Of a stretch of 64,000 nucleotides of DNA, positions 983 through 59,624 are shown in pieces. This stretch comes from Octopus sinensis (Eukaryota), in assembly GCF_006345805.1 (NCBI RefSeq), contig NC_043002.1:120032001-120096000 (forward strand), read 5' to 3'. A program made the translations under genes and the position numbers. The notes under the pieces are model-generated. The model saw only the letters and a program-made list of their open reading frames with translations, had not been told where the DNA came from and searched no databases. Positions within the stretch are counted from its first letter, which is position 1; the number at the start of each line of letters is the position of its first letter.

Positions 983-1346
983 GTTGAAGATATATAGATA
1001 TTTTCGTCTTGAAAGTTTAAGAAAAAATGTTTATTTTGATAACGCGATATACAGAAATAGTAAGCGTATTTGTCACGGTTCAACGGTCCTTTGGAAGGAT
1101 TTATGAAAGCTTTGAAGAACTTAGACTGAAATTCATGTAATCAGTTAAAGGTCGCAGAAATAAAATTATGTTAAATTGAATCTATGCGGTAAGGTTTATT
1201 TTCAGAGTTAAAATAGCTTACTAATTTAAATATTTTGAACTTTCGATCGTTAAATGAATTCAAAAAAACAACAAAAACACTACTTAAATAAGCGCAGATA
1301 AAATAATCAGTAGAAGACAACACCCTGCTGATGTCTGTAGCCGGTA

Positions 1347-1560
1347 CTAGCACGCCGGGCGAAATGCTTAACGGTATTTCGCTTGTCGTTACGTTGTGAG
1401 TTCAAATTCCGCCGAGGTTGACTTTGCCTTTCATCCTTTCGGCGGCGATAAATTAAGTTCCAGTTACGCACTGGGGTCGATGTAATCGACTTAATACCTA
1501 TGTCTGCCCTTGTTTGTCCCCTCTGTGTTTAGCCCCTTGTGGGTAATAAAGAAATAGGTA
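1347..1560 (+). mobile_element. SINE family A (tRNA-like head, GCCTTTCATCCTTTCGGGGTCGATAAA core, stem-loop tail)
   Basis: B-box-like GAGTTCAAATTCC; near-identical inverted copy at 10316-10550; tail GTCCCCTCTRTGTTTAGCCCCTTGTGGGTAATAA. Confidence 0.85.
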
Positions 1561-10315: not shown

Positions 10316-10550
10316 CCTATTTCATTATTACCCACAAGGGGCTAAACATAGAGGGGACAAACAAGGACAGAGATAGGTATTAAGTCGATTACATCGACCC
10401 CAGTGCGTAACTGGTACTTAATTTATCGACCCCGAAAGGATGAAAGGCAAAGTCGACCTCGGCGAAATTTGAACTCAGAATGTAGTGGCAGACGAAATAC
10501 CGCTTAGCATTTCGCCCGACGTGCTAACGCTTCTGCCAGCTCGCCGCCTT
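10316..10550 (-). mobile_element. SINE family A, essentially full length
   Basis: Minus strand starts AAGGCGGCGAGCTGGCAGAAGCGTTAGCACG, has the B-box-like GAGTTCAAATT and ends GTGGGTAATAATGAAATAGGT. Confidence 0.85.
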
Positions 10551-11239
10551 AAAACTTCGATCATCACCGCAAACAGTAGCGTCGCTTTGGCTCCGACTAA
10601 CAACGACAGGGACATCAGCAGCAAAAACGATATAATCAACATCAACAATAACAGCATCGATAAAAACAACACCCTTTGAGGAGTAAAAAAAATGCAGGAA
10701 GAAAAGCATGCGTACCTGATGAGAAAAAATCCTCAATAGAGGGGATAGGAGAACCAAGTAACTCCGGACCATCGCTATAGACGGCGACACAAATACACCA
10801 TGTACTTCCGACACTGGTGACGTAGAAGCTTTATCATGTGATGAGGTGTAATTGGGGAAAAGCGTAAAAATAGTTCAAGAAAAAGTCGTTCTAAGCTGAA
10901 CGGGAAAAGACAAGACGAGGAAAATTCACTTAATCCATCTGCTACACTAACAACAACACCGACTCACTCACCATATCCCAACAACAAAAGCAATACACAC
11001 TCATTCAACCACAACTACAACAAGCACCAAAGCAGAAACAAATATACGAAGAGAAACAACAATCACAAGAACAACTCGTACAACTTACTAGAGAGCCTCA
11101 TCACAACCTGGTTAGAGTTGTGCTCCGTTGGGGTGCTCGATAAGGTCGGGAACCATTGCCAGGGATTCCAGTTTTACCGATTCAAAATCTTCAACCAGAT
11201 TCGTTACCAGTTTTCCTTCCGATATTTTTTTTTTACTTC

Positions 11240-12750
11240 TAGAAGCCAATCCGGGCCTGTCCTATGAATTCTATGTATTCATGCCAGATTTGTTTGGTGA
11301 CCTCTTGCCAGACGTCTACCGCAACTGGCAACAGAACGGGAAAATTGCTAGTACTGTTAGCTTGTCCTGGCCAAGGTGTTATCGAAAAGGCGGGCGCTTG
11401 TCGTCGCTAGCCTGGTCGGAAAAGCGCAAAACGTGCGCAATCCCGAGGAGATCTACCCACGACAACGTCTACCTTATGCGATACATCATAGAGAGGTCTG
11501 GGACCAAAGTTAACTTCGGGAGTGCTATTATCAATTTGGATCAACCAAAAGCATTCGATAAGGTCGAACATAGCTACTTGGAAGTCGTCCAGAAAGCAGG
11601 CGATTTCGGACCCGTTTTCAGAGGCTGGATTGCTGCAATGCACAGCGGCACCTGTTCAGTGGTCATAGTAAACGGCCACCTATCAGAATCGTTTGGCATT
11701 GCACGCTCGATCTGTTAGGGTTACCCGCTGTCGTCTCTTCTGTACGTATTGACACTTGAGCCATTGATGTAGAAGGTGGAAGAGTTAAGGAGTACCCCTT
11801 TCGAACTGAGACAAGGAAGGGCAGTGTAGGCATTCGCGGACGACTTCACCGTCATGGAGTCGGACGCCGTCGAGGTGGAGACGGTCGGCACCATCCCAAA
11901 GCAATATGAGTCGGTTGCCGGGGCTAAAATCAACGCCGACACATCGGTGGGTTTTCAGCTGGCCTCGCGGAGATGCAGGGCAAAGACATCGGACGGCGTC
12001 GTCGAACGCTGGACCGACGGACCAGTTAAACTGCTTGGGATCTGGTTTGGTCCCGATCTCCAGGTTGATAAGAACTGGGACGAGGTGGAGAACAGGGTGG
12101 TCAATCTTACCCAGAAATGGGCTGAGAGGAAGCTGTCCCTGAAAGGTCAGACAGAGGTGGCGAATGTTTACATCGCTTCCGTTATCACTTATCGCCTGAC
12201 TGTCGAGCCTTGTCCCGGTTACTGCTTCACCAGGCTGGAGCATCTCTTACTTAAATTCTTGTGGAAGGGACGTGTTCCAATATAAGACCGTCAGTCTGTT
12301 GTCAGCATCCTCTGAGTGGTTGTTTAGGTATACTGTGGCCCCTAATGCGCAAATACGCTCTTAGGTCAAGCCATGTGCAACGATTTCTGGGCAGCGACTG
12401 TGTGTGGGCTCCGTTTGGGAGACTCATCTTTTCGCAACTCGTCTCCTTGAGGGAGCGGCAGTCCAGGATGAAGAAAAGATTTAGACTGGACTTCTGACAC
12501 CTAGAATGTCGTCAGGTGCCCACAGCCCTCTAACCAGTCGAGCAATGGGATCGGTGGATGTTCCGCTTTAGAAATTTATAGAGGTTTAGTGACATGGAAG
12601 TGCGACGACGTCCTCGGGGAGACACTAGGCACCGACGAGAACGAACCGCCAGTTCCGGAGGACTTTCCGGTCGGGAACTATTATGGATAATTTCCAGATG
12701 TTTATGGTCCGTCAGTTCTACCGGGGGGGGGGGGATGTTACCGGTGCGAG
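11240..12750 (+). pseudogene. Degenerate Tx1/L1-clade LINE ORF2 (reverse transcriptase region)
   Basis: Motifs TCAIPRRSTHDN, NLDQPKAFDKV (LDxxKAFD), GYPLS (QGxPLS), AFADD, GAKIN, KLLGIWFG and RKLSLKG, spread across ORFs 11128-11718 and 11854-12285. Stops and frameshifts are present; no endonuclease domain was seen. Confidence 0.9.
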
Positions 12751-20287: not shown

Positions 20288-22410
20288 TGAAGTACATTTT
20301 AGTACCGGTTTCCGCCATTTTAGACGTTTTCACCTCAGAGTAAAATAAAAAAAAGACAATTCAATTGGAGAAAAAAAATTAAGTGAAATCTTTTGTAGAT
20401 ATCTTCATAGTCTTTGAATAGGTAAATGTTTCCATAGTTTTCAGGCAGTCTGTCTCCCTCTCTATGTCTTTGTGAATGCCTGGTTGGTAGGTAGGTAGGT
20501 AGGCATGTAGGAAGGTATGTAAGTAGGTAGGTAGGTATGTAGGTATGTAAGTAGGTAGGTAGGTAGTAGTAAATTAGAAGGAATAGTTTGGATACAGACA
20601 GTTGACGGTTTAAGCAGGAGCAATCCAATTCTGGCTAGAGAATTACTCCAATGAACTCCCACACCGCATCAAAAAAGAATTCGCAACAGAAGGGCTAAAA
20701 TTCATCTTGGAGAGTAATTTCTTCGTATTTAATGAGAACTTCTAACGACATAAATCGGGACATATATTTACTAATAGCCCGCGAACTCAAAGCAATATCT
20801 TCCATTCAACTCTTGTCATCCCAGATACACTAGAATGAATATCCCTTACAACCTGGCAAAAAGTATTTATACTATAGTATCTAATAGAAGTACCAGAGAC
20901 ACACGACTACACAAACTAAAGGGTACATCATCATCATCATCGTAGTCGAGACAATGGAATTTACTATGCTACGCCAGACTTCACGGTCCATCATAGCATT
21001 ACGGAGGTCCTGTTGCTGGATGCCTGTATCCCTGGAGATTACATCAGGGTAGGAGAGTGTGCGCCCTCTGGTATCGCGAGTAGATGGCTTCCAGAGGAGA
21101 AGAGTAGAAATTGCCTCGTTTTCAGCTCTACAACAATGTCCAGCAAACATAAGTGTATTAAAGCAGGAACTACTCACAATCACTAATTGATATAGGCTTT
21201 CAATGAGTCCTACAACTCAGCATCCACGAACTCAAACTTCACAAACTACAGAAAGATTTACAGCCAAAAGCACCACCATACATATCTACGCACAAACCCC
21301 TCAACAATGAGGCCTTCGACACCATCCTCCAGAACATTCCTATACTAAAAAGGGAGCATAGAAATCCTCCAAAAACACCCCATTATAAAGAGCGAAAGAC
21401 AATCCTGTGTTAGCAGATAATGAAAATTCTTCCAACACAGGCCCAAGTACACTCGTCGACTACATCGAAATCGTCAGTAAAAGAATGCGGAAGACCTAAC
21501 TGTGGTATTTGTGTCAACCTAATTGAGGGATCGGAATTCTCTTTCAAACAGGGTCAACATTTCACAATGGAAAACAACTTCACATGTGCATCGGAAAACC
21601 TAATATATGTATTAACTTGCTCAAGGTGTCAAGAACGATATATTGGTCGAACTAAAAACAGTTTACGTCAGAGGATGACAGTACATAGTTACCAAATTAA
21701 AATAGGAGGATACAGAAAAATAGGATTAAGCGAGAACATCGGTATTTTTTCGACTAATGAACAACCCAACTTCAGAATTTTTCGCCTCTATAAATGAAGG
21801 GACAATGCAACTTATAGTCAGCGCAATTGCAAAAAAATCATACTTTATCACAAAAGATAAACCTCTATTGAATTCCGCCACCACAGATAGAACTACAGCA
21901 AGAATTAGAACGTTCCTACCACTACCGCTACGACCACAACTGGTCACTTTTAGGTTATTTGACCATTAGAGAAGATTCCACGAACAATTTACTGCGGCAC
22001 ATTTTACTCCTACATTTTTCTTTTCTTTTCTTTCTCCTTCTCCTTCCTCTTTTCCTACCCCAACTTCTCCTCCTCCTTCATCTTCTCCTTCAACTCCTCT
22101 TCCTCATCCTTCTCTTTCTCCCACATTTCTCCTCCCTCAGCTGTTCCTGCTAAAACTCTTAATATCTGTACCAAAACTGTTCCTTCAAATTTACTACTAC
22201 TACCTACCTACCTACCTAGCAATCAGGAATTCTCAAAGACATAGAGAGTGTGACAGACTGCCTGAAAACTATGGAAATATTTATCTATTCAAAGACTATG
22301 AAAATATCTACAAAACCTTTTAATTTTTCTCTCCAATTTAACTGTCTTTCATATTTTACTTGTAGTTGAAAAAGTCTAAAATGACGAGACCCGGTACTAA
22401 AATGTTCTTC
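20288..22410 (+). mobile_element. Degenerate Penelope-like element (Neptune-like) with an inverted upstream pseudo-LTR
   Basis: RT remnants (AIQFWLE..., KQYLPFNSCHPRYTRMNIPYNLA), Cys linker CGRPNCGIC and GIY-YIG NLIYVLTCSRCQERYIGRT...LRQRM (ORF 21420-21797). 20288-20600 is an inverted copy of the 3' end at 22165-22410. Confidence 0.85.
20925..21150 (-). mobile_element. RTE-type LINE 3' fragment nested in the Penelope element
   Basis: FAGHCCRA...LLLWKP...RGR...DREVWRSIV followed by a (GAT)n tail. Confidence 0.8.
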
Positions 22411-23595: not shown

Positions 23596-25858
23596 ATGTA
23601 TACAATGCATATATATATATATGTATGGATGTGTATATACACATATATATATATGTATATCTATGCACATATGCATGTACATGTATATATATATATATAT
23701 ATATAATATATCTGTGTGTATGTGTGTGTGTTTGTCTGCATTTCTGTATGTCTGTATGGAGGGGAGCGACAATGTGTTAAGTTCAAAACAAAGTTTACTG
23801 TGTGAACTGTAGATATGATTACATATATATAATCGATTCATAATTGATTACTATTCAATTGTCTAAAACGGTAGTCGACAACTTCTTGGAAGAGATTTAT
23901 ATACAAAACGCGACCGTCTTTAATTAAATTATACTCATTATTTTATCTTCCACAATATCTATTAAACAACAAATTTATTTTATTCGTAACTGAAATTCAT
24001 TAGTGATGTTACTCAGGAAAAGTTAAAAAGCGTGAAACAACGATTACTTATCTCCTCATTTCAGTCACAAATAAATTACTGAAAATTATATTAGCATTCA
24101 ACTTTATCATCAACTTCGACTGTTAATCTTAACTTCGTAATTCTATTTACAACGAGAAAAAGATATTAGGGACTGAAATAAACAAGGAAGTGGTGTCATG
24201 GATGTCTCTCAATACAACTATAGACGTTTAAAATATCTTGGTGTTAGAGATTACGGAAAAGACAAGAAAAATCTTATCCGTTTAATTAAATGTTCTGCGA
24301 AGTCTAGGCTTTACCAATATATCATGTGTTCTACTCTTTGCGAAAACATTCGATTAGAAAACACAAGAATTTTATTCTATTTACGATTAAGGTGCTTGCG
24401 GGCAAAGAATAAAGTTATCTGAATGAAATTGGGTGAGCAAAGGATTGGCCACTGATAGAAAAAAAAAATTAAAGATCGAAGGATAGAGCCATTGTTGTAA
24501 CATATACTCAATAACCACACTGTTTGATCTATTCTCAGCTGAAGTTATATATTAGTAATAGGAAAATGAAGTCATGTTACAAGTGGGTGTTTAAAAACTA
24601 AATACCTGTATGCCATATTATTTTATAGAATTGGAACCATTCTGAAACTTTAAATAGTGCAATCAACAAACTAACAGCAAATGAGTGAAGCAACAGCTCC
24701 TCTACACGTCGGAGTAGGCCTCGAAAGTATATAATGGTAGAAGCCATTAAAAGTATTACACATGTGATTTTTTAATTCTTTGTGTTTCAGAAGTTCTACT
24801 TCATAAATGGAACCAGGTGTGCGGAGCAGTTAAAATATATTCTTATTTAGATTTTAAAATCCTGAAATATCAAACTCTGTAATAGTCAGTACAACATTAA
24901 TAAGCAACTATAAAGACTTTTTCACATTTCTAAAATCTATGAGTTTCGAAATCTTGATAAAGCACAAAGATCTCTTGCGTGTAAAAATATGCTGCAAAAA
25001 TATTTTAGTTCCCATAATTATTGAACGAAATATAAAAATAAAAATGTTCCTACAATGCTTAAATATATAAAAGTGAAAACATAAATGGAAAAACGCTTAC
25101 AAACATGAACACATACTGACGCACAATATACATGATCGTTAATCCAACGAAAGATATTATTCTGAAAAGCCCACGAGGGGAAAAGGAACTTGTTTTATTA
25201 GACACAGGACTTTGTACAAAAATTGTATGTATGTATGTATGTACGTATGTATGCATATATGTATGTATCTATCTATCTGTCTATCTCTCTCACTATACAT
25301 ATATATAATAGACACTCACGTACATATACACACACGCACATACACACACACACGCATATAAATATATACATACTAGCATTGTGACCCGTCGTTGCCGGGT
25401 CATAGTGCTAGTGCATGTATATATGTGTATATATATGTGTACATATTACATGTACATCTATATATACATCTACACATAAAATACAAAATACAAAGTTATA
25501 TCTTGATATCGCTAGTGATAGCAATACTCAAAATATATAACAGACTGGAATTGTAAGCCCGTCTCTTACAATTTCGATCAATTGCATCTTGTCCTCCCTC
25601 TTGTATAGAAGTGTGGCTACAATCCAGCCTACCTCAACTTCGGAGGGGGGGGGCATTTTAAATTTTTATCCGGCACGTCCTACGTCCCAGATATAAAGGT
25701 AAAAATAAAATATTTCCACTTTGCAAGTTCGAGTCGAGTACTCCCTTGCACGCTCCGTTGACTCGAAACTTGCTTCTATTGTGACGAATTTACCTCCTCT
25801 GGTTAGATATCTTTCATAGTCGCACGAAGGCACTTTTCGATGGTGCTTTGCTCCAGGT

Positions 25859-27455
25859 GATTTTATTATTACCCACAAGGGGCGAACATAGAGGGGACAA
25901 TACAAACGGGGAACTTAAAATAAGAAAGCGAATGACAAGAAAAGGAAAAAATAAAAGTAAAAATGACATATGAAAGAATATTTACAATGAGATGTAAATG
26001 CCCACTCGATCCCCGGAATCGAGAGGTTACATTTTCGTCACATATATTTCACAATATTTTCTTTTTTCTCTTCTTTCTTCTCTCTCTTCTCACAATTCTA
26101 TACATATTCCATGATAGTTTTCAACTCTCTAAAGTCCATCTCTGAGCCCTCAGGCAGCCGCTCTCTCACTCGAACACTCGTGTAAAATGTTACATTCTCT
26201 CCGGCAGCTCTGAGGAACTCAGCGACTCTTTCTTCGGGGATTAGAGCAGTCTCCTGCCACTGATCGGTCATCCTGTTGACCCACACATGTCCCTCCGTAT
26301 TACTTGTCAAGTCCTTCATTTCAGGGCAGAAATGGAAGGTTACTAACTTGTAGAAGCAGTAATCCTTTTCTTTTTCTTTTTGTGTGCCGTCTTTTCTTTT
26401 CGTTTGATTCTGATCTCTCTCTTGTTTTTTTCCTGTTGTTTCTTTTCCTTTTTTTTTTTCCTGACTCTGTTTTGGTCTATTTCTTTCTTTTCTTTTATTT
26501 CTTTTACTTCATTGACTTATTATTTCCTTTCTCTTGTTGTTTTGTTTCCTTTTCTATGTTTTCTTTTTCAGTTACCGTATTCTTCTTTTCTTCGAGTTCC
26601 TGCTCGCACTCCGCTATGAATTCGTATAACGGGCACTCTTTTTTAATGTGCCCCCTTGTCCCGCACAAGTAGCAGTTTGGCTTTCTTCCCTCTACAATTA
26701 CACTGAGGGTTTTCTCATCTTCGATTTCTATTCTGTAGGGGAACCTTTCAATGTCCTCTTTTGTGGCCATCAAACACAGTTCTACCCCATATCCTCTCCA
26801 GTTTACCGCGTTGGACTCCTTAAAGGATTCCACCTCCACTTCCTCTTCTGCTGCTCCTAGAATAGCTGTTGCCAGCCATTCTGTTTTCACTTCTGGGGGT
26901 ATATTCGGGATTTTAACCCGGACCCCTCTTCTTCCCTTGTATGAGGGCCACATTATAAATGTTTCCGCTCTTAGTACAGTGGTAGCCAGTGAGGCTGCAA
27001 TTTCTTCCGTTGCACATCTCACCTCCACCGTACCAAATTTCTTGCCTCTACTCACGTAGGTCGATTTCCCCATTATGTCTCCCAGACATTTTTCGATTTC
27101 TGCTATCTCACTCTTGCCAGTTTCTTTGTATTTTTGTCTTGGGTTCTATATGTTACAGTCTTGTTTTCTTTGTCCTCTTTTGCTTTCGCGGGGGGGATTA
27201 GCTTCACGCTATCACCCTCCCTTTTGAATAGCTTTTCATATTCTTTGAGTTTACTCTTCTCAAAGAAAACATCCTTCACGATTATTGCCGAATCATTATT
27301 TTTCTTTCCCGTGACCCCCGCGTAAGTCGCCATGACTAGAGGGTCAATTCACCTTCTCCGGAAGGTTTCCACACGTGGAGGCAAACGCCTCGCGCGATAT
27401 TAATCACTTTACACAACAAAATTTCAACGTCTAATCACAGATAACAACACGTATA
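25859..27455 (-). mobile_element. ORF1-only retroelement, type A, unit 1
   Basis: Bounded by 14-bp junction motifs; near-identical to unit 2 but lacks ~165 bp of the K/E-rich region; 3' tail shared with SINE A. Confidence 0.85.
26098..27333 (-). pseudogene. Gag/ORF1-like protein (CCHC zinc knuckle), frameshifted
   Basis: Pieces 27103-27333 (MATYAGV...), 26504-27073 (CYLCGTRGHIKKEC = CX2CX4HX4C) and 26098-26319 join with small indels. The N-terminal region is possibly RRM-like (inference). Confidence 0.8.
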
Positions 27456-27469
27456 GCTTGGAGCCAGGT

Positions 27470-29224
27470 GATTTTATTATTACCCACAAGGGGCGAACAT
27501 AGAGGGGACAATACAGTCGGGGAACTTAAAATAAGAAAGCGAATGACAAGAAAAGGAAAAAATAAAAGTAAAAATGACATATGAAAGAATATTTACAATG
27601 AGATGTAAATGCCCACTCGATCCCCGGAATCGAGAGGTTACATTTTCGTCACATATATTTCACAATATTTTCTTTTTTCTCTTCTTTCTTCTCTCTCTTC
27701 TCACAATTCTATACATATCCATATAGTTTTCAACTCTCTAAAGTCATCTCTGAGCCCTCAGGCAGCCGCTCTCTCACTCGAACACTCGTGTAAAATGTTA
27801 CACTCTCTCCGGCAGCTCTGAGGAACTCAGCGACTCTTTCTTCGGGGATAGAGCAGTCTCCTGCCACTGATCGGTCATCCTGGACCCACACATGTCCCTC
27901 CGTATTACTTGTCAAGTCCTTCATTTCAGGGCAGAAATGGAAGGTTACTAACTTGTAGAAGCAGTGATTTGTTTCCGTCCTACGTTTTCCCTCGTTTTCT
28001 TTTCGGGCTTTTTCTTCCTTGTTCTCCTCTCTTTGTTTCTCTTTTTCTCTCTTTTTGCCTTCTTTTCTTTCTCCTTCCTTCTCTTGTCTTTTTGGTTCTT
28101 TGTCTGTTCTCTCTTTCTCTCGTGTTTTTTGTTCCTTTTCTTTTATTTTTGTGTGCCGTCTTTTCTTTTTTTCGTTTGATTCTGATCTCTCTCTTGTTTT
28201 TTTCCTGTTGTTCTTTTCCTTTTTTTTTCCTGACTCTGTTTTGGTTCTATTTCTTTCTTTTCTTTTATTTCTTTACCTTCATTGACTTATTTTTCCTTTC
28301 TCTTGTTGTTTTGTTTCCTTTTCTATGTTTTCTTTTTCATCTCCGTTACGTATTCTTCTTTTCTTCGAGTCCTGCTCGCACTCCGCTACGAATTCGTATA
28401 ACGGGCACTCTTTTTTAATGTGCCCCCTTGTCCCGCACAAGTAGCAGTTTGGCTTTCTTCCCTCTACAATTACACTGAGGGTTTTCTCATCTTCGATTTC
28501 TATTCTGTAGGGGAACCTTTCAATGTCCTCTTTTGTGGCCATCAAACACAGTTCTACCCCATATCCTCTCCAGTTTACCGCGTTGGACTCCTTAAAGGAT
28601 TCCACCTCCACTTCCTCTTCTGCTGCTCCTAGAATAGCTGTTGCCAGCATTCTGTTTTCATCTGGGGGTATATTCGGGATTTTAACCCGGACCCCTCTTC
28701 TTCCCTTGTATGAGGGCACATTATAAATGTTTCCGCTCTTAGTACAGTGGTAGCCAGGAGGAGGCTGCAATTTCTTCCGTTGCACATCTCACCTCCACCG
28801 TACCAAATTTCTTGCCTCTACTCACGTAGGTCGATTTCCCCATTATGTCTCCCAGACATTTTTCGATTTCTGCTATCTCCACTCTTGCCAGTTTCTTTGT
28901 ATTTTTGTCTTGGGTTCTATATGTCAGTCTTGTTTTCTTTGTCCTCTTTTGCTTTCGCGGGGGGGATTAGCTTCACGCTATCACCCTCCCTTTTGAATAG
29001 CTTTTCATATTCTTTGAGTTTACTCTTCTCAAAGAAAACATCCTTCACGATTATTGACGAATCATTATTTTTCTTTCCCGTGACCCCCGCGTAAGTCGCC
29101 ATGACTAGAGTGTCAATTCACCTTCTTCGGAAGGTTTCCACACGTGGAGGCAAACGCCTCGCGCGATATTAATCACTTTACACAACAAAATTTCAACGTC
29201 TAATCACAGATAACAACACGTATA
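27470..29224 (-). mobile_element. ORF1-only retroelement, type A, unit 2
   Basis: As unit 1, with its frameshifts at different positions. Confidence 0.85.
27708..29102 (-). pseudogene. Gag/ORF1-like protein, frameshifted (~460 aa reconstructed)
   Basis: ORF pieces 28917-29102, 28279-28785 and 27730-27924; CCHC knuckle intact. Confidence 0.8.
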
Positions 29225-29238
29225 GCTTGGAGCCAGGT

Positions 29239-31154
29239 TGTTTTATTATTACCCACTAGGGGCTACATAGATGGGACAATACAATCGGGAATGAATAATG
29301 AATTATGAAGTTTGTACAATGTGGTGGTGTAAGCCCGCTCGATCCCCGAAATCGAGCGGTTACATTTCGTCAATTAATTTTGTTCGTCAACAAATTTTCA
29401 AAATAAAACTTTTTTTACATTTTCAATATACATTTCAAAAAGTTTTACAAAGTTCAACATTTCCTTTTTTTTTTTTTTTCAGAATTTAAAGTTCTTTTTA
29501 TCATTTCCAAATTAAGTTTTCACAATACCTTTTCTATTCTATACACTCCATTATGTCTACCAAATCTGAGTAAAGTTCCATCGTTCGAGGCCACCTTTTA
29601 AGTCGGCATTTCATATGTTTTAACACGTTCTCGCCAGCTGCCTCGATGAACGCCTCGGCGTCGTTCTCGTGGATGAGTGCACCTGTTTCTTCCCATTCGG
29701 TGCCCATCCTGACCCACGTATATCCGTTTGTTGCGCTTATTAAATCTTCCATCTCCTCACAGTGCTTGTGATGGATCAACGTTCCATAGTATATTTGTAT
29801 TTTCTATTCGTACCTACGTTTTCTCTAGTTTTTCTCTTGGGACTTACTTCCTCTTTTTTCTCCTCCCCGGTTTCTCTCTTTCTCTCTTTTTGCTTTCTCT
29901 TCTTTCTTTTTCCTTCTCTTGTCTTTTTGGCTCTTTGTCTGCCGTCTCTCTACCCTGTGCCTTAAGTTCCTTTCCTGTTGTTTCTTTTCCTTTTTGCATA
30001 CCATTTTTTTCCTTTCTCTTGTTTCTGTTCCTTCTCTTGTTCTTTTCCTGCTTTTTCTCTTTCCTTTAATGTACTTTCCTTTTCTTTCTCTTGCTTCTGC
30101 CTTGGCTCCTTCTCCCTACTTCTGCACCCTGTGAATTTTGCTCCTCTTTACTATCTTCTTCCCTTTGTTTTCATTTTCCTTCAGTGCGCTGTTACTTCCC
30201 TTCTCTTGTTGCTTCTCCGTTATTTCCTTTTCCTTGTTTTCGCTGTTCTTTCCTTCGTGTTCGTTTTCCTTCTCTCCACTTTGTGTCTCTTTTTGCTCCG
30301 CTGTGAATTCATACAGCGGACATTCCTTTTTTATGTGCCCTCTTGATCCGCACAGGTAGCAATTCGGTTTTCTGCCTTCCACTATTACACTAATTGTCTT
30401 CTCGTTTTCTATTTCTATTTGGAAGGGAAATCTTTCGATGTCTTCAATTGTGGCCATCAACCACAACTCGACTCCGAATCCCTTCCAATTTACAACGTTC
30501 GTCTCCTTAATTGACCCTATTTCTACTTCCTCTTTTGCTGTGCTCCAATAATGGCTGTTACCAGCATTTCTGTTTTAATATTTGGGGGTACCTTTGGGAC
30601 TTACCCGTACCCCTCGTCTTCCTTTATACGTCGGCCACATGGTGAAATTTTCCGCTTTCAGGACAGTGGAAGCCAATGAGGCCGCCACTTCCTTTGTTGC
30701 GCATCTCACCTCCACCGTACCATATTTCTTTCCTCTGTCTACAAAAGTCGCTTTTTTCATGATGTCCCCCAGACATTTCTCTATTTCTTCAATCGTCACT
30801 CTCACCAGTTTTCTCGTGTTTCTATCTTGCGTTCTATACGTTATCGTGATGTTATTTTTCTCTTCTATTGTTTCCACAGGCGGGACCAGCTTCACGCTAT
30901 CACCCTCCCTTTTGACGAACTTCTCGTATTCTTCAATTGTTCTTTTCTAAAGAACACTTCTTTTATTCTAAGTGACTCGTCACTTTTTGTTGTGGCGACC
31001 CCCGCGTAAGTCTCCATGACTTGAGGGTCGACACACCTTCTAAAAAAGGTTCAAACACGCAGCGGCAAACGCCTCGCGCGATTCAATTTTTGGCAATTTT
31101 TTAACGTTTTTTTTCAAAATTTTCACATGCAAAAATAACTAACACAACACACTA
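29239..31154 (-). mobile_element. ORF1-only retroelement, type B, unit 3
   Basis: Diverged paralogue of type A with the same junctions, tail and hairpins. Confidence 0.85.
29512..31017 (-). pseudogene. Gag/ORF1-like protein, frameshifted (~500 aa reconstructed)
   Basis: Starts METYAGV at 31017; pieces 30575-30895, 30116-30466 (CYLCGSRGHIKKEC) and 29534-29779. Confidence 0.8.
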
Positions 31155-31168
31155 GCTTGGAGCCAGGT

Positions 31169-33070
31169 TGTTTTATTATTACCCACTAGGGGACATAGAT
31201 GGGACAATACAATCGGGAATGAATAATGAATTATGAAGTTTGTACAATGTGGTGTAATGCCCGCTCGATCCCCGAAATCGAGCGGTTACATTTCGTCAAT
31301 TATTTGTTCGTCAACAATATTTTAAATATAAAACATTTTTTACATTTTCAATACATTTCAAAAAGTTTTACAAAGTTCAACATTTCTTTTTTTTTTTTTT
31401 TCAGAATTTAAAGTTCTTTTTATCATTTCCAAATTAAGTTTTCACAATACCTTTTCTATTTATACACTCCATTATGTCTACCAAATCTGAGTAAACTTCC
31501 ATCGTTCGAGGCCACCTTTTAAGTCGGCATTTCATATGTTTTAACACGTTCTCGCCAGCTGCCTCGATGAACGCCTCGGCGTCGTTCTCGTGGACGAGTG
31601 CACCTGTTTCTTTCCATTCGGTGCCCATCCTGACCCACGTATATCCGTTTGTTACGCTTATTAAATCTTCCATCTCCTCACAGTGCCTGTGATGGATCAA
31701 CGTTCCATAGTATTTGAATTTTCTATTCGTACCTACGTTTTCTCTAGTTTTTCTCTTAGGACTTACTTCCTCTTTTTTCTCCTCCCTCGGTTTCTCTCTT
31801 TCTCTCTTTTTGCTTTCTCTTCTTTCTTTTCCTTCTCTTGTCTTTTTGGCTCTTTGTCTGCCGTCTCTCTACCCTGTGCTTAAGTTCCTTTCCTGTTGTT
31901 TTTTTCCTTTTTGCATACCATCTTTTCCTTTCTCTTGGTTCTGTTCCTTCTCTTGTTCTTTTCCTGCTTTTTCTCTTTCCTTTAATGTACTTTCTTTTCT
32001 TTCTCTGCTTCTGCCTTGGCTCCTTCTCCACTACTTCTGCACCCTGTGAATTTTGCTCCTTTTCTACTATCTTCTTCCCTTTGTTTTCATTTTCCTTCAG
32101 TGCGCTGTTACTTCCCTTCTCTTGTTGTTTCTCCGTTATTTCCTTTTCCTTGTTTTCGCTGTTCTTTCCTTCGTGTTCGTTTTCCTTCTCTCCACTTTGT
32201 GTCTTTTTGCTCCGCTGTGAATTCATACAGCGGACATTCCTTTTTTATGTGCCCTCTTGATCCGCACAGGTAGCAATTCGGTTTTCTGCCTTCCACTATT
32301 ACACTAATTGTTTTTCGTTTTCTATTTCTATTTGGAAGGGAAATCTTTCGATGTCTTCCATTGTGGCCATCAGCCACAACTCTACTCCGAATCCCTTCCA
32401 ATTTACAACGTTCGTCTCCTTAATTGACCCTATTTCTACTTCCTTTTTGCTGCCCCAATAATGGCTGTTACCAGCATTTCTGTTTTAATATCTGGGGGCA
32501 CCTTTGGGACTCTTACCCGTACCCCTCGTCTTCTTTATACGTCGGCCACATGGTGAAATTTTCCGCTTTCAGGACAGTGGAAGCCAATGAGGCCGCCACT
32601 TCCTTTGTTGCGCATCTCACCTCCACCGTACCATATTTCTTTCCTCTGTCTACAAAAGTCGCTTTTTTCATGATGTCCCCCAGACATTTCTCTATTTCTT
32701 CAATCGTCACTCTCACCAGTTTTCTCGTGTTTCTATCTTGCGTTCTATACGTTATCGTCTTGTTATTTTTCTCTTCTATTGTTTCCACAGGCGGGACCAG
32801 CTTCACGCTGTCACCCTCCCTTTTGACGAACTTCTCGTATTCCTTCAATTGTTCTTTTCTAAAGAACACTTCTCTTTATTCTAAGAGACTCGTCACTTTT
32901 TGTTGTGGCGACCCCCGCGTAAGTCTCCATGACTTGAGGGTCGACACACCTTCTATAAAAGGTTCAAACACGCAGCGGCAAACGCCTCGCGCGATTCAAT
33001 TTTTTGACAATTTTTAAAGGTTTTTTTTTCCAATTTTCACATACAAAATAACTCACAACACACGTGGATA
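31169..33070 (-). mobile_element. ORF1-only retroelement, type B, unit 4
   Basis: Near-identical to unit 3. Confidence 0.85.
31434..32930 (-). pseudogene. Gag/ORF1-like protein, frameshifted (~500 aa reconstructed)
   Basis: ATG at 32930; pieces 32513-32869, 32108-32401, 31756-32226 and 31434-31700. Confidence 0.8.
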
Positions 33071-33632
33071 GCTTTCCTCTAGGTGTGAAAATCTTTTTTC
33101 TCTACATTGTATACTTTATAGACAGTCTTTTCGTTAATTTAATTTTTTATTATCCATCTGGACTATTCCATTTCTGCACGCTAATTTTATTTTTAATTTA
33201 TTCTCATTCATGTGAAACCACTTATTCAAGTTCAAATCATTCATGCAATTTTATACCAATTGCTATTTTTACTTTTGTTATGTTACTTAGTTTGGTATAC
33301 TTTAGTTTGATTTTAATTATTACTTACTACATATAATTCAATTGTTATTATTATTTTTATTGTTAAAGTGAAAGTATCTGACATAAAATAGAGAAATGTT
33401 TTTGTTTCACTTTTAACACGTAATACTGAAATAGTGGAGAAGATATGATATTGCTATGGGCTCGCTCTAAGCAAGAAGTTGAACATTTTTTTGCCCATGA
33501 AACTACATGGACACTAAGTAAGGCATGTGTAAAATTTGAATGAAATTGGTTTTGTAGTTCTCAAGTTTTAGGGAAACACACAGACAGACAGACAGACTGA
33601 CACACATTCTCAGTTTTATATATAGAGAGATA

Positions 33633-38449: not shown

Positions 38450-39596
38450 GTAGTTCGCTTGAAGCATTGCGTATGTTTGTAAAGAATAAAAAGTTTTTAA
38501 TGGTACAACAATACACTAGAGTACAGACAATGGGTTATATGCCTTTTGTAATTTAGTCATCCATAGTCTGATATGATATTTCGGAATAATATTCCTTCTT
38601 CAGATATTCTTGGATGGAGTCAATGCCATAATCGGTTTTTTAACGGCTTTTCTTCTCTATTTTATGGAAGCGTCTCAGCAGTAGTCTCACGATGCTCCTT
38701 CCGAAATTCCTCATGAGAAGTGTGCTAGGCCTGCTATGTATTAATCTCGTGTGTGCTGGTACATCCGTAGCGCTGCTTCTAAGTTACGTATTATACGTGC
38801 AGATTCATTTTTTCTCTTCTCTATTCTTTTTTTATTGTTATAAACTACAGATGAGCATGTTATCAAAAATGAAACTACACACATCCAGATGTATCTAAAT
38901 AATGTATTGATTACCAACCTCCAGACTGTTGTTAAATTGGGGCCCTGTTCTGTGTATATGAGTATAGCTTCCTTAATTCTTAAATTACCCAAATTTCTTT
39001 CATTGGCCTCAATTGTAATTGTTATGCTTTTGTCGGTGTTCCGGCATCTGTCTAGATGTTTTCCGAAGGAGGAAGCTCTCGTGTTCAGATATTCTTTGAT
39101 GCGGACGTGTAACGGTCTTGTTGTGCTAACCACATAGAACTTGTTGCATTTGTTACATTGTATTCTATACATAACATTAACCCGTTGGCATAAATCTGTG
39201 TCACGGATGGAACAGTTTGTTAGTGTACATATGTTTGTCCGGTACAATTCAGGACTTCCACTCGGTGCCAAAATAGGATACACCAGAAACGAACTTGCAC
39301 GTATCCAGGGTAAGTGCAGCAGAACGGAGGACAAGGTAACCCACACTACAGGCTTCCTAGAAATATTGAAAACCAACGGGTACCCTAGATCAGTTGTAAA
39401 TCGGATTAAGTACCCAAAACGACCAACACGCCGAACACATAGAAAACCCAATAACACATGCTTCCTTAAAATACCCCATTTTAGCGAGAGGATAACTACA
39501 TCCATCCGAAGAACCATAAGAAGGGCGAGACATACAACTAGCTCACCCCGGCCCCTCTCTGAGAGGACACCTCACCAAGAAAGGAACAAGGGATGA
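38450..39596 (-). mobile_element. Penelope-like element 3' part with an inverted 5' segment
   Basis: GIY-YIG region NVMYRIQCNKCNKFYVVSTTRPLHVRIKE...EAILI on minus (about 38890-39243). RT-thumb region (LKTNGYP, LKIPHFSE) on plus (39240-39596). Hammerhead-like core at ~38577-38603. Confidence 0.85.
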
Positions 39597-43413: not shown

Positions 43414-44572
43414 TCTTTATATATATATAAAACTGAGAATGTGTGTCTCTGTCTGCTGTCTGTGTGTTTCCCTAAAACTTGAGAACTACACAACCAATTT
43501 TATTCAAATTTTACACATGCCTTACTTAGGGTCCGGGGAGTGTCATCGGCAAAAAAATGTTCAACTTCTTGCCTAGAGCGAGCCCATAGCAATATCATAT
43601 CTTCTCCACTACGATTCCCTAAAACTTGAGAACTACAGAACCAATTTCATTCAAATTTTACACATGCATTACTTAGCGACCATGTAGTTTCATGGGCAAA
43701 AAATCGTTCAACTTCTTGCCTAGAGCGAGCCCATAGCAATATCATATCTTCTCCACTATTTCAGTATTACATGTTAAAAGTGAAACAAAAACATTCTCTA
43801 TTTTATGTCAGATACTTTCACTTTAACAATAAAAATAATAATAACATTTGAATTATATGTAGTAAGTAATAATTAAATCAAACTGAAGTATATCAAACTA
43901 AGTAACATAACAAAAGTAGAAATAGCAATTGGTATAAAATCGCATCAATCACTTGAACTTGAATAAGTGGTTTCACATGAATGGGAATAAATTAAAAATA
44001 AAATTAGCGTGCAGAAATGGAATAGTCCAGATGGATAATAAAAAATTAAATTAAAGAAAAGACTATGGTCTATAAAGTATACAATGTAGAGAAAAAAGAT
44101 TTGAACACATGGAGGAAAGCACCTTCGAAAAGTGTCTTGGTGCGACTATGAAAAGTAAATTCGCCACAATAGAAGCAAGGTTCGAGTCAACGGAGCGTGC
44201 AAGGCAGTACTCGACTCGAACTTGCAAAGTGGAAATATTTTATTCTTACCTTTATATCTAGGGCGTAGGACGTCCCGGAAAAAAATTTAATATGCCCCCC
44301 CCCACCCCAGAAGTAGAGGTAGGCTGGATTGTAGCCACACTTCTATAGAAGAGGGAGGACAAGATACAATTGATTGAAATTACAAGAGACGGGCTAACAA
44401 TTTCAGTCTGTTATATATTTTGAGTATTGTTATCACTAGCGATATCAAGATATAACTTTGTAGTTTGTATTTTATGTGTAGATGTATATATATAGATGTA
44501 CACATATATATATATACACATATATACATGCACTAGCACTATGACCCGGCAACGACGGCTCTTTAATGCTAG
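43414..44572 (+). mobile_element. Non-autonomous Helitron (empty paralogue)
   Basis: A|TC start at 43414; subterminal GACCCGGCAACGACGG and CTAG|T end at 44572; no TSD; internal ~145-bp tandem duplication (43467-43610 / 43615-43757). Confidence 0.9.
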
Positions 44573-46529: not shown

Positions 46530-46952
46530 CAGGCGCAGGAGTGGCTGTGTGGTAAGTAGCTTGCTAAACAACCACATGGTTCCGGGTTCAGTCCCACTGC
46601 GTGGCATCTTGGGCAAGTGTCTTCTACTATAGCCCCGGGCCGACCAATGCCTTGTGAGTGGATTTGGTAGACGGAAACTGAAAGAAGCCTGTCGTATATA
46701 TGTATATATATATATGTGTGTGTGTGTCTGTGTGTGTGTTTGTGGTCTGTGTTTGTCCCCCTAGCATTGCTTGACAACCGATGCTGGTGTGTTTACGTCC
46801 CCGTCACTTAGCAGTTCGGCAAAAGAAACTGATAGAAAAAGTACTGGGCTTACAAAGAATAAGTCCCGGGTCGATTTGCTCGACTAAAGGCGGTGCTCCA
46901 GCATGGCCGCAGTCAAATGACTGAAACAAGTAAAAGAGTAAAGAGTAAAGAG
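46530..46952 (+). mobile_element. SINE family B, full length
   Basis: Aligns with the other copies; (AGAGTAA)n tail. Confidence 0.92.
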
Positions 46953-47739
46953 AGATCGGGAACAGGAAACGTAGGATGATAATTATGGGACTTTCACTTT
47001 CCAATGAATTGTATAACATTACGTTTAGAATTGAAATGGTGTAATTCTATTTGTTTATAATTCGACATTTATCTATCAGTGTGTCCACCAATATATCTCT
47101 GTTTCTCACCAATACTTTACATATACATATTTTGTTTGATAGGTGTATGTAGGAGTACATGTCTAAGACACTTAGCATTACCAATACAGACAACACGTTG
47201 CCGACGTTTCCGTGCGAAGCTCCAAGTTTTAATAAATATGTCAAAGCAGATTTCAGAAATCTCTTCGAATGAAAACTAATGAACAGACACAAAAAAAGCA
47301 CACGCTAACCTAAATGACACTAAATTCATCAAATTTGGTCGGTATCTTGTTTATAACATATCTATACATCAACATTACATATTTCTCTTTTTCTCCCTAT
47401 ACACCTTCCCTGCTTCTCTCTCACTCCCTCTCAATAAATATATATATATGTAGTTCAGAGACGGAGACAGAGAAGAGAAGATAGTCACAGTGGTAGCGTG
47501 ACAGCAAGAAAGATAAACAAACATATTAGTGAGTTAAATATAAAAGTAAGCAGACAAACATATATAGAAGAGATCAGACGTGTGCTAGCGTAATATGTTT
47601 GCTTGTTATGCACACACACCACACACATACATACACACACACACACACATACATAGATATACATATAGATATAGATAGATATGTAAATGTTATATATATA
47701 TATACATACATTTTTATATATATATATATATATCTCGCC

Positions 47740-49545: not shown

Positions 49546-49965
49546 AGGCGTAGGAGTGGCTGTGTGGTAAGTAGCTTGCTAACCAACCACATGGTTCCAG
49601 GTTCAATCCCACTGCGTGGCATCTTGGGCAAGTGTCTTCTGCTATAGCCCCGGGCCGACCAATGCCATGTGAGTGGATTTGGTTGACGGAAACTGAAAGA
49701 AGCCTGTCGTATATATGTATATATATATGTATGTGTGTATGTGTGTTTGTGTGTCTGTGTTTGTCCCCCTAGCATTGCTTGACAGCCGATGCTGGTGTGT
49801 TTACGTCCCCGTCACTTAGCGGTTCGGCAAAAAGAGACCGATAGAATAAGTACTGGGCTTACATAAGAATAAGTCCCGGGGTCGAGTTGCTCGACTAAAG
49901 GCGGTGCTCCAGCATGGCGGCAGTCAAATGACTGAAAGAAGTAAAAGAGTAAAAGAGAAAAGAGA
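49546..49965 (+). mobile_element. SINE family B, full length
   Basis: Aligns with the other copies. Confidence 0.92.
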
Positions 49966-50747
49966 GCTATATCTTGAAGGTTCACTGACAATATATATTC
50001 TGTCTCTCTCACACCGTTAACTGTTACTGATCATTATGTTGAGAAACCAATATTCACCCTACAATCAGGTAAAGCAGCGAGTAAGTCCTCATTTTTGTTC
50101 TTATATATATCTTAGCTAAAAAGTAAGACGCAAGAAAAGTTTCACGATTATGCTATGACTCATAAGCAAATGTCATTTAATACTGCATGACTTTATAAAA
50201 TTTCACATCTCGTCCCTATATCTCTTTGTAAACAACAAAATTCACTTTTTTCAATTATTGGTAGATTTTATCTCTTTATTTACGCTTTCCTGTTAACGAT
50301 ACAAGATGTAAATCTTTTAGTATCGTCAAAATGTACTACAAGATGAAAATTCTTCTATTGTATATTTGTGTGTGTGAGTGCGTATGTGTGTGAGTGTGTG
50401 TGTGTGTGTGTGTAAAAACCATTAAGATATTTTTCATGATATATATAAGATCCACTTGATTATACAACTGTATTCAATAGAGCTATACATTAAGGTAATT
50501 TCTTTTAATGTAGAAGGAAATAAATATAATGAATATAAACGTCTTCTTAAAATTACGGTATTCATTTCAATCGAAGTTGGATATGAAAGAAATACTGTAA
50601 AAGCTTACGGTCTATAAAATCTTCGCTAGAGGTTTTGAAATTAACACTGCAGTCATTTGTAGAAAGCTAATTTTATAAGTAAAGTTTTATCAGTGAATTG
50701 AAATGGTATTCGGTGTTCGCTGTGGTGATGTAGGGTTTAATATATAT

Positions 50748-53454: not shown

Positions 53455-55048
53455 TCAGGCTGAGTGAAAAGTAACCAACGTTTTGAAACATAAATTCATC
53501 ACAATATATTTCAACAATGCGGAAATTTTATTCATCAAAGTAAGTACCATTACAATCTACACATTTTTACCAACCAGTTACCAGTTTGTCTATTCAAGCA
53601 ACATAAAAAATAGGGAGTTCTGGAGCTGATGAACTCTTTGAACGCACTTTCAGCATCGGCTTGATTTTTTAACTCCTTCTCTCGCAGGAAACCATCAAGG
53701 TGCTTAAAAAAGTGGTAGTCGTTAGGAGAAGGGTCTGGGGAATTAGCTGGGTGGGGAAGAACTTCGAAGGCAAGTTCCCTCAACTTCTGGAGCGTCATTA
53801 GGGAAACGTGTGGTCGAGCACTGTCATAAAGAATGATTTTCCCTCTTCTGTTGACCAGTCTGGGACGGAGGGTAACAGTTTTTCGTTCATTTTGTCAATT
53901 CCATGGCAATATGTTTCTGCAGTAAAGGCTTTTTCGGGTTTTAAGAAGTTATAGTGGATGAGTCCACAACCAAAGAGTCACCATAACCTTATTTTTGAAG
54001 AGACCGCTTTTAGGGAAAGGTTTTCGGTGCTTCATTTTGGTCCAACCACTGCAAAGAACGTTTTTCATTGCAAGTTACAATACGGTCGGGAAATGGATCG
54101 GTCAGTTTACGGAGAAGAAGAGATGAACAAATTTCATATCTGCGCATTTTCTATTTCCATTTAATCGTGTGGTACCCAGAAGTCAAACTATTTTGATTTT
54201 CCGATCGCATGCAAATGGTTGCTGTTTCTGGTGAACTGTAAGTTCTTTTGCCGGTTCTCGAGCGGTTTTACGTGGATCGTCTTTAACTGGCCGTCATCGA
54301 TGACAGATGTGCATCCACTACGCTCACGATCCTCAAGGCACAGTCTCGAATGCAAAATCATTTAAACCATTTTCGAGGTGACCATTCAACGTTTCGTTGA
54401 TATCGCGAGGAGTTTCAGCTGCTTTACGTCCGTTTTTGAAGTTGAATAGGAGTGGCTGTGTGGTAAGTAGCTTGCTAACCAACCACATGGTTCCGGGTTC
54501 AGTCCCACTGCGTGGCATCTTGGGCAAGTGTCTTCTGCTATAGCCCCGGACTGACCAATGCCTTGTGAGTGGATTTGGTAGACAGAAACTGAAAGAAGCC
54601 TGTCCTATATATGTATATATATATATATATGTGCGTGCGTGTGTGTGTCTGTGTTTGTCCCCCTAGCATTGCTTGACAACCGATGCTGGTGTGTTTACGT
54701 CCCCGTCACTTAGCGGTTCGGCAAAAAGAGACCGATAGAATAAGTACTGGGCTTACAAAAGAATAAGTCCCGGGGTCGAGTTACTCGACTAAAGGCGGTG
54801 CTCCAGCATGGCCGCAGTCAAATGACTGAAACAAGTAAAAGAGTATCGCGCTTTGACAGTTGCATTTCAGATGATTGTAACAAGGGTGAAAAAAGTATCA
54901 ATGTTAATTTATTGATGTATTTGGGCAAGTCTGTGTATGTATTATTAGAAAATTGGCAAAATATGTTTTTAAAAAATTAAAAAATCTACAAAACTCCGGT
55001 ACAGATTCTTCATGGTTCAAAACGTTGCTTACATTTTACTCAACTTGA
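53455..55048 (-). mobile_element. Degenerate mariner (Tc1/mariner) transposon
   Basis: Imperfect ~33-bp TIRs with TA on the left. Transposase remnants KAAETPRDIN, WVPHD, DSARPH and HPANSPDPSPNDYHFF (YSPDLAP-like). Interrupted by a SINE B. Confidence 0.9.
54446..54844 (+). mobile_element. SINE family B inserted in the mariner
   Basis: Aligns with the other copies; splits the 5' part of the transposase. Confidence 0.92.
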
Positions 55049-55942: not shown

Positions 55943-56334
55943 TCTCTCTCTTTGCACTCCGTCGGTTACGACGATGAGGGTTCCGGTTGATCCGAATCAA
56001 CGGAACAGCCTGCTCGTGAGATTAACGTGTAAGTAGCTGAGCGCTCCACAGACACGTGCACCCTTAACGTAGTTCTCGGGGATATTCAGCGTGACACAGA
56101 GAGTGACAAGGCCGGACCTTTGAAATACAGGTACAACAGAAACAGGAAGTAAGAGTGAGAGAAAGTTGTGGTGAAAGAGTAGAGCAGGGATCACCACCAT
56201 CCCCTGCCGGAGCCTCGTGGAACTTTTAGGTGTTTTCGCTCAATAAACACTCACAACGCCCGGTCTGGGAATCGAAACCGCGATCCTATGACCGCGCGTC
56301 CCCTGCCCTAATCACTGGGCCATTGCGCCTCCAC
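55943..56334 (-). mobile_element. SINE family C, full length, tRNA-derived
   Basis: A box TGGCCCAGTGA, B box GGTTTCGATTCC; 12-bp TSD TGTCTAAATATA (55931-55942, 56335-56346). Confidence 0.9.
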
Positions 56335-57014: not shown

Positions 57015-57313
57015 TGTTTATTGAGCGAAAACACCTAAAGCTCCACGAGGCTCCGGCAGGGGATGGTGGTGATCCCTGCTCTACTCTTTCACCACAACTT
57101 TCTCTCACTCTTACTTCCTGTTTCTGTTGTACCTGTATTTCAAAGGGCCGGCCTTGTCACTCTCTGTGTCACGCTGAATATCCCCGAGAACTACGTTAAG
57201 GGTACACGTGTCTGTGGAGTGCTCAGCCACTTACACGTTAATTCCACGAGCAGGCTGTTCCGTTGATTCGGATCAACCGGAACCCTCGTCGTCGTAACCG
57301 ACGGAGTGCTTCC
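57015..57313 (+). mobile_element. SINE family C, 5'-truncated
   Basis: 18-bp TSD ATGA(T/G)GCATTTTTCATAT (56997-57014, 57314-57331). Confidence 0.9.
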
Positions 57314-59319: not shown

Positions 59320-59552
59320 ACTCTTTTTTACTCTTTTTACTCTTTTACTTGTTTCAGTCATTTGACTGCGGCTATGCTGGAGCACCGCCTTTAGTCGAGC
59401 AAATCGACCCCGGGACTTATTCTTTTTGTAAGCCCAGTACTTATTCTATCGGTCTCTTTTTGCCGAACCGCTAAGTGACGAGGACGTAAACACACCAGCA
59501 TCGGTTGTCAAGCAATGCTAGGGGGACAAACACAGACACACAAACACACACA

Positions 59553-59624
<72 letters not shown>

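Follow-up and report, generated by a model that had tools for sequence, protein, structure and literature searches.

Introduction

Tandem arrays of the site-specific R1 element in Drosophila are reported to arise when a new copy enters the 14-bp target-site duplication (TSD) that borders the 5′ end of a copy already in place, and the RNAs of melanogaster-type R1 carry upstream target sequence that can be seen at off-target insertions (PMC2718515). The Tx1-Mar long interspersed nuclear elements (LINEs) of crocodilians and SINEU-3 also show tandem insertions that sandwich a TSD and were read as sequential insertion, and Tx1L in Tx1D, as cited in that paper, is a comparable case of nesting (PMC4494074). 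Here we describe an array in a 64,000-nucleotide stretch of the Octopus sinensis genome (assembly GCF_006345805.1, contig NC_043002.1, positions 120,032,001 to 120,096,000 of the forward strand; the whole stretch is hereafter called the window), where four retroelements that encode only open reading frame 1 (ORF1) lie inside a non-autonomous Helitron. We consider it likely, with a probability of roughly 0.7, that this array grew where it now stands, through successive insertions at its 5′ junction that relied on the enzyme of an L1/Tx1-type LINE of 5.2 kb.

The octopus arrays share with R1 a site-specific LINE of the apurinic/apyrimidinic endonuclease (APE) type, and the array growth at the 5′ TSD and later unequal exchange reported for R1 (PMC2718515; 10.1101/158386) may apply to them too. 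However, R1 belongs to another clade, targets 28S ribosomal DNA (rDNA) and, as far as these sources describe it, keeps host sequence in its spacer, whereas the octopus spacer has diverged into heritable lineages that are common to several families and occur at many dispersed loci. Tx1-Mar LINEs insert at a site within a non-autonomous DNA transposon and also move non-autonomous partners such as SINEU-3 (PMC4494074), and the octopus LINE, which is Tx1-like, probably does the same, but in octopus the target is a Helitron and the partners are ORF1-coding elements of 1.7–1.9 kb, not short interspersed nuclear elements (SINEs) derived from small nuclear RNA (snRNA). Furthermore, the octopus arrays reach at least 15 units of mixed families, and their junction mutates and is carried by the donor, in contrast to the plain local TSD of the crocodilian elements as described in the accessible part of that paper. 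HAL1 (half-L1) elements are likewise non-autonomous L1-group elements encoding ORF1p only; they are mammalian L1 derivatives, and the accessible text on them mentions neither target specificity nor arrays (PMC5753468). As octopus elements whose tail is shared with a Tx1-like LINE, the ORF1-only units are an analogue of HAL1 and not a member. A repeat study of Octopus vulgaris reports active L1-Tx1 and Helitron families and, in its accessible portion, no nesting or arrays (PMC13282606).

The individual ingredients all have precedents, and the literature searched (with Repbase, most subscription journals and supplements outside it) contained no account of a LINE that targets Helitrons, is accompanied by ORF1-only elements and has junction variants that are inherited. 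A further likeness is offered by HeT-A, TART and TAHRE, in which gag-only elements stand in polarised head-to-tail arrays with partners coding for reverse transcriptase (RT), and transcripts carry a little upstream sequence. These elements belong to the jockey clade and are added to chromosome ends, with no cut by an endonuclease and no TSD, whereas the octopus units are inserted internally at a cut site.

A retroelement array nested in a Helitron

The array, its host and the empty copy used for comparison are laid out as follows.

33085..33626, minus strand: 5′ half of the host non-autonomous Helitron, with 5′ TC, TATATATAAAA and a GTCT microsatellite, terminating in ...GATTTTCAC at the probable nick site
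33071..33084, minus strand: left junction, ACCTAG-AGGAAAGC
33070-31169, minus strand: unit A1, an ORF1-only retroelement of family A, with ORF1 frameshifted in the present assembly
31155..31168, minus strand: internal junction A1/A2, ACCTGG-CTCCAAGC, a local host core with a donor-type spacer
31154-29239, minus strand: unit A2, family A, with a TAGTGTG leader and an ORF1 zinc knuckle (zf-CCHC, E=6.6e-6)
29225..29238, minus strand: internal junction A2/B1, ACCTGG-CTCCAAGC
29224-27470, minus strand: unit B1, an ORF1-only retroelement of family B
27456..27469, minus strand: internal junction B1/B2, ACCTGG-CTCCAAGC
27455-25859, minus strand: unit B2, family B, with an internal deletion of ~160 bp and zf-CCHC (E=3.9e-5); its closest relative is B1 (0.99% substitutions)
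25845..25858, minus strand: right junction, ACCTGG-AGCAAAGC, the original host site, of the ACCTG/ACCATCG Helitron subtype
25373..25844, minus strand: 3′ half of the host Helitron, with a subterminal hairpin (-10.5 kcal/mol, DNA parameters) and CTAG end
43414..44572, plus strand: empty Helitron copy of the ACATG/ACCTTCG subtype, with its target site at 44107-44120

The array is bordered on each side by one half of a ~1.1-kb repeat whose ends are of the Helitron type, namely 5′ TC, 3′ CTAG with a subterminal hairpin, and T after the 3′ end. The 5′ half is 94.7% identical to the empty copy (43615-44120); the filled copy has a perfect hairpin, whereas that of the empty copy is degraded. A 147-bp tandem duplication was also noted within the empty copy (window 43468-43758). 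All four units lie head-to-tail on the minus strand and measure ~1.9 kb (A1 and A2), 1.76 kb (B1) and 1.6 kb (B2). Each of the three internal junctions reads ACCTGGCTCCAAGC followed by TA. The bodies of A and B units are only ~71% alike and yet the junction is identical between them, which means that its sameness does not simply follow from likeness of the units.

An earlier note on this DNA, made from the sequence alone, had located six such 14-mers, and both their coordinates and their sequences hold: the pattern AC[AC]T[AG]G-N4-AAGC matches exactly six times in the window and nowhere else in it. Its description of the junction as invariant applies within this array but not beyond it, since across the 56 loci introduced below the spacer GCTCCAAGC makes up only 39 of 139 internal junction matches (three of the 139 being spurious regular-expression matches). 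The empty Helitron site was also correctly placed, but its subtype differs from that of the filled copy.

Insertion in place or import

The genome searched comprises 2.72 Gb, and a junction-spanning search matched the same array type on many chromosomes. The arrays combine A and B, other ORF1-only families of ~1.7 kb and the 5.2-kb elements L and M. We retrieved 19 arrays from the junction search and further loci in chromosome order from the 5′ ends of B (100 of 142 listed) together with lists of tails and Helitron sites, and tallied 56 loci; 22 of the 56 were picked by similarity to the window's junction. Four likely haplotigs or segmental duplicates among 33 stretches or loci (C9003, C3f, C9c, C8e) and one chance pattern match (C1d) were left out of the tallies, and three off-target stretches (L214, L221, L222) had no usable match to an element.

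The third base of the last internal junction was C in all eight arrays with ACCTG-type hosts (C-hosts) and in none of the 28 with ACATG-type hosts (A-hosts; Fisher p=3e-8), and over all internal junctions it was C in 27/27 in C-hosts versus 4/83 in A-hosts. This match to the local Helitron subtype favours serial insertion in place. The same is visible within a lineage of A that has a TAGTG leader and a CTCC spacer, whose core is ACCTG in two C-hosts but ACATG in one A-host; the leader and CTCC spacer of the window's A2 are present both in a C-host array (core ACCTG) and in an A-host array (core ACATG). Private host variants repeat in neighbouring junctions (C14c, C2), and the leading units are 5′-truncated in three arrays. 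Direct serial insertion could be seen where M had been placed before B with a duplication of ~20 nt, and in a B-M tandem at an unrelated target, divided by that target's own TSD.

The earlier note proposed another origin for the window's array, of which at least A2-B1 and perhaps the whole would have been assembled at a different locus and brought in by retroposition of one read-through RNA. Multimer transfer does look real in this system, as the B-A-L trains in unrelated hosts described below (C1, C3, C7) and off-target dimers within one TSD indicate, and the joint of A1 and A2 is 97% like one in a C16 array. Nevertheless, the C16 units are 1.1–1.8% away and mosaic, with no ordered copy, and the window's A2-B1 pair stands 2.4–4.6% (A) and 1.8–6.4% (B) apart from all five other A-to-B pairs; a genome search for a sibling of the A2-to-B1 joint gave none above 94% among 40 scored candidates (best 94%). 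All three internal cores match the local ACCTG host subtype, which is the less often filled of the two, and as the array contains no ORF2 unit, an RNA of 3.7–7.2 kb would need mobilisation in trans. The ground on which import had been proposed, the non-host CTCC spacer, is accounted for by monomers, as set out in the next section. Retroposition of multimers thus finds support at three other loci, but import of the window's array is unlikely.

Of 107 B units, B1 and B2 are most closely related to each other (0.99%). For 44 of 83 B units the closest relative lies within the same array, where 2.3 would be expected, and the median distance is 1.15% within arrays versus 3.19% between them. These values would suit a history of two insertions only, one B and then one A, each doubled by unequal sister-chromatid exchange and not by retroposition, in the manner in which R1 arrays are reported to expand (10.1101/158386). 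For the whole array we find this improbable, more so than import: A1 and A2 are not mutual nearest relatives, their leaders differ and many of their differing sites are shared with other lineages, which points to two donors. Unequal exchange is applicable to B1/B2 only, where it would complement serial insertion in place.

Several observations weigh against serial insertion in place. The search for RNA evidence yielded neither a transcript start site nor a read-through RNA; one contig crossing a junction came from a run only presumed to be RNA and was not counted. Moreover, if the 3′ end of an RNA extended into the following 14-mer and base-paired there with the target site, imports would be matched to the host subtype too. 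At off-target sites, the donor core matched over all five bases in three of six cases and partly in two more. The arrays C1, C3 and C7 resemble one transferred train, and the autonomous unit is 3′-most in 25 of the 26 complete arrays containing one (hand count), a position that is not predicted by independent serial draws and fits either trains mobilised in cis or founding by a LINE first. Across arrays, moreover, B-before-L similarity is correlated (Mantel r=0.43, p=0.02, n=18), the units are mosaics, which blurs lineage tracing, and one internal B is without its first ~90 bases (C6d). Counts of private substitutions by array position were not used for dating, as sequencing error and differences in the number of copies sampled per family distort them.

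The 14-mer as a probable inherited copy of the target

Off target, full-length units have their own TSD of 10–19 bp starting with AC(N)TG, followed by GAAC, CGAAC or GGAAC and a Helitron-like 14-mer. One solo off-target B carries CTCCAAG inside its own TSD, two further solo B units show GAAC and the 14-mer following 16-bp TSDs, and for solo L, M or A insertions in Helitrons the left 14-mer was unlike the right host copy in 4/4. Since solo copies bear such non-host variants, the CTCC spacer is no evidence of import, and the argument for an imported concatemer drawn from it fails. In ten arrays, CTCC or CGCC at the left junction directly abuts the left half of the Helitron.

A duplication of 8–14 bp of host site had also been proposed for the window. 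This is doubtful, as the 14-mer on the left is identical to the host copy on the right at just 2/32 loci. The TTTTCAC flank before the window's left 14-mer occurs at the left junctions of five loci and in 0/100 listed empty sites (of at least 939), so that this 14-mer is more likely donor-carried than a clean TSD; at 33071..33084 it was likely brought in by unit A1. The TATCCAC leader is paired with AGGAAA[G/T]C junctions in further arrays as well.

The spacer variants comprise AGGAAAGC, AGGAAATC/T, CGGAAAGC/ATT/ACGC, CGCCAAGC, CTCCAAGC and TCGG/TCTG/TCCG-AAATC, and a given variant is mostly array-specific, yet crosses family boundaries. Compared side by side, they can be read as a mutational series anchored on host sequence, and ACCTGGCTCCAAGC appears to be one of many Helitron 14-mer variants travelling at element 5′ ends. 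The earlier note had named a fixed terminal sequence without target similarity as an observation that would speak against its reading. This is half the case: the 14-mer does travel with its element, but its sequence varies and derives from the target.

In the mechanism we propose, the LINE endonuclease would nick 5′ of ACNTG (GAAC^ACATGGAGGAAAGC in the Helitron), and the top strand would be cut ~14–19 nt downstream. Transcription would start a few bases upstream of the 14-mer before each unit, so that the old TSD would be heritable: the complementary DNA (cDNA) would end in the donor's old target copy, which could pair with the top-strand overhang. The first ~5 bases would usually be local, and spacer and leader would come from the donor, giving ACCTGG (host) and CTCCAAGC (donor) in the window. 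The new 5′ junction would be the target again, and the array would grow 5′-ward while the host copy remains at its 3′ end, with the 14-mer acting as a heritable TSD. Two proposals of the earlier note are retained here, namely that each junction regenerates the target and lets arrays keep growing, and that terminal homology has a role in insertion. The CTCC spacer likely derived from the Helitron's own spacer by mutation (AGGA > CGGA > CGCC > CTCC, all four states being found), and near-identical neighbours such as B1 and B2 could result from local addition or homogenisation, either because transcripts made from the array insert into it again or through unequal exchange.

A Helitron as the native target

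The elements end at the Helitron site GAAC^AC[A/C]TGGAGGAAAGC in 42 of the 56 loci, with one further case (C1e), which bears out site-specific insertion; the Helitron sequence directly after the last unit reads AC[A/C]TGGAGGAAAGCACC. An unselected 100 of 554 3′ tails gave 47 internal junctions, 21 ends at the Helitron site and 32 elsewhere (hand count), so that 21/53 terminal ends lie at the Helitron site. By hand count, the off-target ends show an exact ACNTG start in 7/32 and N4-AAGC in 0/32 (control, 12 matches). The core needed by the enzyme appears to be ACNTG.

The genome contains at least 939 empty Helitron sites of two subtypes, ACCTG with ACCATCG and ACATG with ACCTTCG. The 13-mer CCTGGCTCCAAGC, in comparison, has 30 matches in 2.72 Gb versus three for the control, of which 22 are element junctions and eight are scattered non-element sites. 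Given these numbers, the native target is the Helitron and not ACCTGGCTCCAAGC, as had been suggested together with a search for a multicopy locus carrying it. One could still suppose that ACCTGGCTCCAAGC is the true target in another multicopy locus (snRNA, rDNA, transfer RNA cluster or satellite) and the Helitron a look-alike secondary site, because the CTCC spacer is absent from the Helitron, a second recurrent target (AACTGAATACT...) exists, and the assembly may lack stretches of rDNA or satellite that were not assembled. We regard this as very improbable, since the eight non-element matches form no multicopy array and intermediates connect CTCC to the Helitron spacer.

The ACCTG type makes up more than half of the 100 listed empty sites (of at least 939) but only 2/21 filled right ends in the unselected list, and the ACATG subtype seems to be preferred for insertion. 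More ORF1-only families with a AATAAAGAAAT tail (C/E; L049-L050/L135, L165, L201) insert in the same Helitron behind GAGAAAAAAG, which places them ~20 bp further upstream than the main site; they occur as members of the main arrays too. The second recurrent target, ACTTATTCATCGATAC... / AACTGAATACTCG..., lies in another repeat (L213, L039-L040/L134, L055-L056, L163), and tandem insertions separated by the local TSD occur there too. In an A array within a Helitron (L225), the junction ATGCCAGTCTTCATTG is similar to a site in the right half of the Helitron, around position 990, at which M is inserted in another locus (L224); the L225 junction is possibly a TSD captured from this third site.

ORF1-only units and their LINE partner

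In the ORF and Pfam scan, units of A and B showed a gag-like ORF1 containing a CCHC knuckle, and RT was absent. The B ORF1 was intact (462–469 aa) in seven of the copies scanned, and two A copies outside the window have an intact ORF1 of 493 aa; frequent frameshifts in other copies may be sequencing errors in homopolymer runs. B1 ORF1 has 97% identity with a predicted protein of O. vulgaris. Over the first 235 codons, non-synonymous (dN) and synonymous (dS) divergence between A and B is 0.175 and 1.53, and the dN/dS ratio is 0.18 within B (206 pairs) and 0.12 within A (3 pairs). Identity across families sharing spacer lineages is 36–59% in ORF1. With an ORF1 that is under purifying selection and only ~36% identical to that of the partner LINE, A and B would represent old ORF1-only lineages and not fresh deletion products.

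The partner LINE, L, is 5.2 kb long, and one natural copy has an intact 1132-aa frame with Exo_endo_phos (EEP, 2e-13), RVT_1 (2.5e-31) and zf-RVT (1.4e-8) domains, the best solved-structure relative of this ORF2 frame being human L1 ORF2p (E=1e-65). A CX2CX4HX4C motif is visible in the ORF1 translations of L and M, and zf-CCHC is found in A and B; an ORF1 with a CCHC zinc knuckle is a feature of the Tx1 clade, as is a preference for particular target sequences, which the octopus elements also show. The last ~50 nt, a non-poly(A) 3′ tail, are common to A, B, L, M, C and an abundant SINE. Copies of L that are 5′-truncated have TSDs of 14–17 bp, and B/A copies have TSDs of 10–19 bp. By these features, L and M can be assigned to the L1/Tx1 group of non-long-terminal-repeat retrotransposons, and the L1/Tx1-type driver envisaged earlier is matched by an autonomous partner with endonuclease and RT domains. 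Among 76 homologues, the sole Tx1-named one is fungal (26% identity), with no named animal Tx1 sequence. Because tail and target are shared with the partner LINE, A and B are probably mobilised in trans by its ORF2p.

The junction ACCTGG-CT-CCAAGC is also an imperfect palindrome, and circles would yield head-to-tail multimers, which brings to mind a circular intermediate integrated by a site-specific recombinase at an attP-like 14-mer. The domain scan found no such domain in the units or the partner, and the variable off-target TSDs of 10–19 bp and the 5′ truncations, typical of target-primed reverse transcription, effectively refute this explanation, the least probable of those weighed here.

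Copies of an abundant SINE-like repeat lie at window 1300-1560 (+) and 10319-10550 (-), and their last ~45 nt match the A/B/L/M tail, which suggests that the LINE group may mobilise this repeat too. A degraded RT remnant at window 11116-12700 (+), without a Pfam match, resembles L ORF2 by eye and would be an older relative. The first B unit of another locus (L037, G000:C10072) is ~8% from all others, and its ORF1 has many K>R/E and I>V changes, a pattern expected of A-to-G hypermutation; several L 5′ regions are G-rich at variable sites. For this B unit, RNA editing before insertion would be a guess.

Possible B-A-L trains at other loci

Three arrays on three chromosomes, C1 (B6A9L), C3 (B4A2L) and C7 (B5A2L-B-L), have the same order and the rare junction (C/A)CACGGCGGAAAT. 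Their B runs are 0.0–0.8% apart for most pairs and their A runs 0.4–0.8% for most, and they share one L sublineage, with an L distance of 0.37% between C3 and C7. The Helitron hosts differ by 5.4–7.4%, the median among 63 copies being 6.1% (seven mis-anchored Helitron rows with distances above 12% were ignored). Movement of whole filled Helitrons was rejected, as the hosts are unrelated. A transferred B-A-L train explains the three arrays most simply, and three parallel series from one dominant source are possible. Dimers enclosed by one TSD exist off target as well.

We tentatively suggest, at a little short of even odds, that ordered B-A-L trains of at least 9 kb spread to fresh Helitrons by way of single read-through RNAs, in which passengers would travel in cis with their engine and the 14-mer would serve as a barcode between unrelated families that records insertion history.

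Other repeats in the window

Two GIY-YIG-like remnants, at window 21414-21797 (+) and 38741-39571 (-), are probably Penelope-like elements; the first matches Pfam GIY-YIG (E=8e-5), and the second has no such match. A 296-bp inverted repeat (55954-56249 / 57015-57309, 97% identity, 765 bp apart) could be a terminal-inverted-repeat element or a miniature inverted-repeat transposable element. A ~420-bp repeat with an internal CA/TA microsatellite is present in five copies of 85–95% identity (46531-46954, 49546-49966, 54448-54845, 59327-59788 and 62068-62471).

Implications

The second-strand step of LINE insertion is described as poorly understood (PMC6895275). The octopus system is young, with copies 0–3% apart, intact ORFs and dozens of independent loci, so that its junctions give a natural read-out of how LINE 5′ ends are joined, in which target-derived bases can be told from cDNA-derived ones. 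Several old ORF1-only lineages have been kept under selection here. The system also provides a possible case of multi-element retroposition, and a LINE endonuclease that favours an inert repeat of ~1,000 copies offers a testable model of targeting. The arrays illustrate one route by which a site-specific LINE may give rise to satellite-like arrays.

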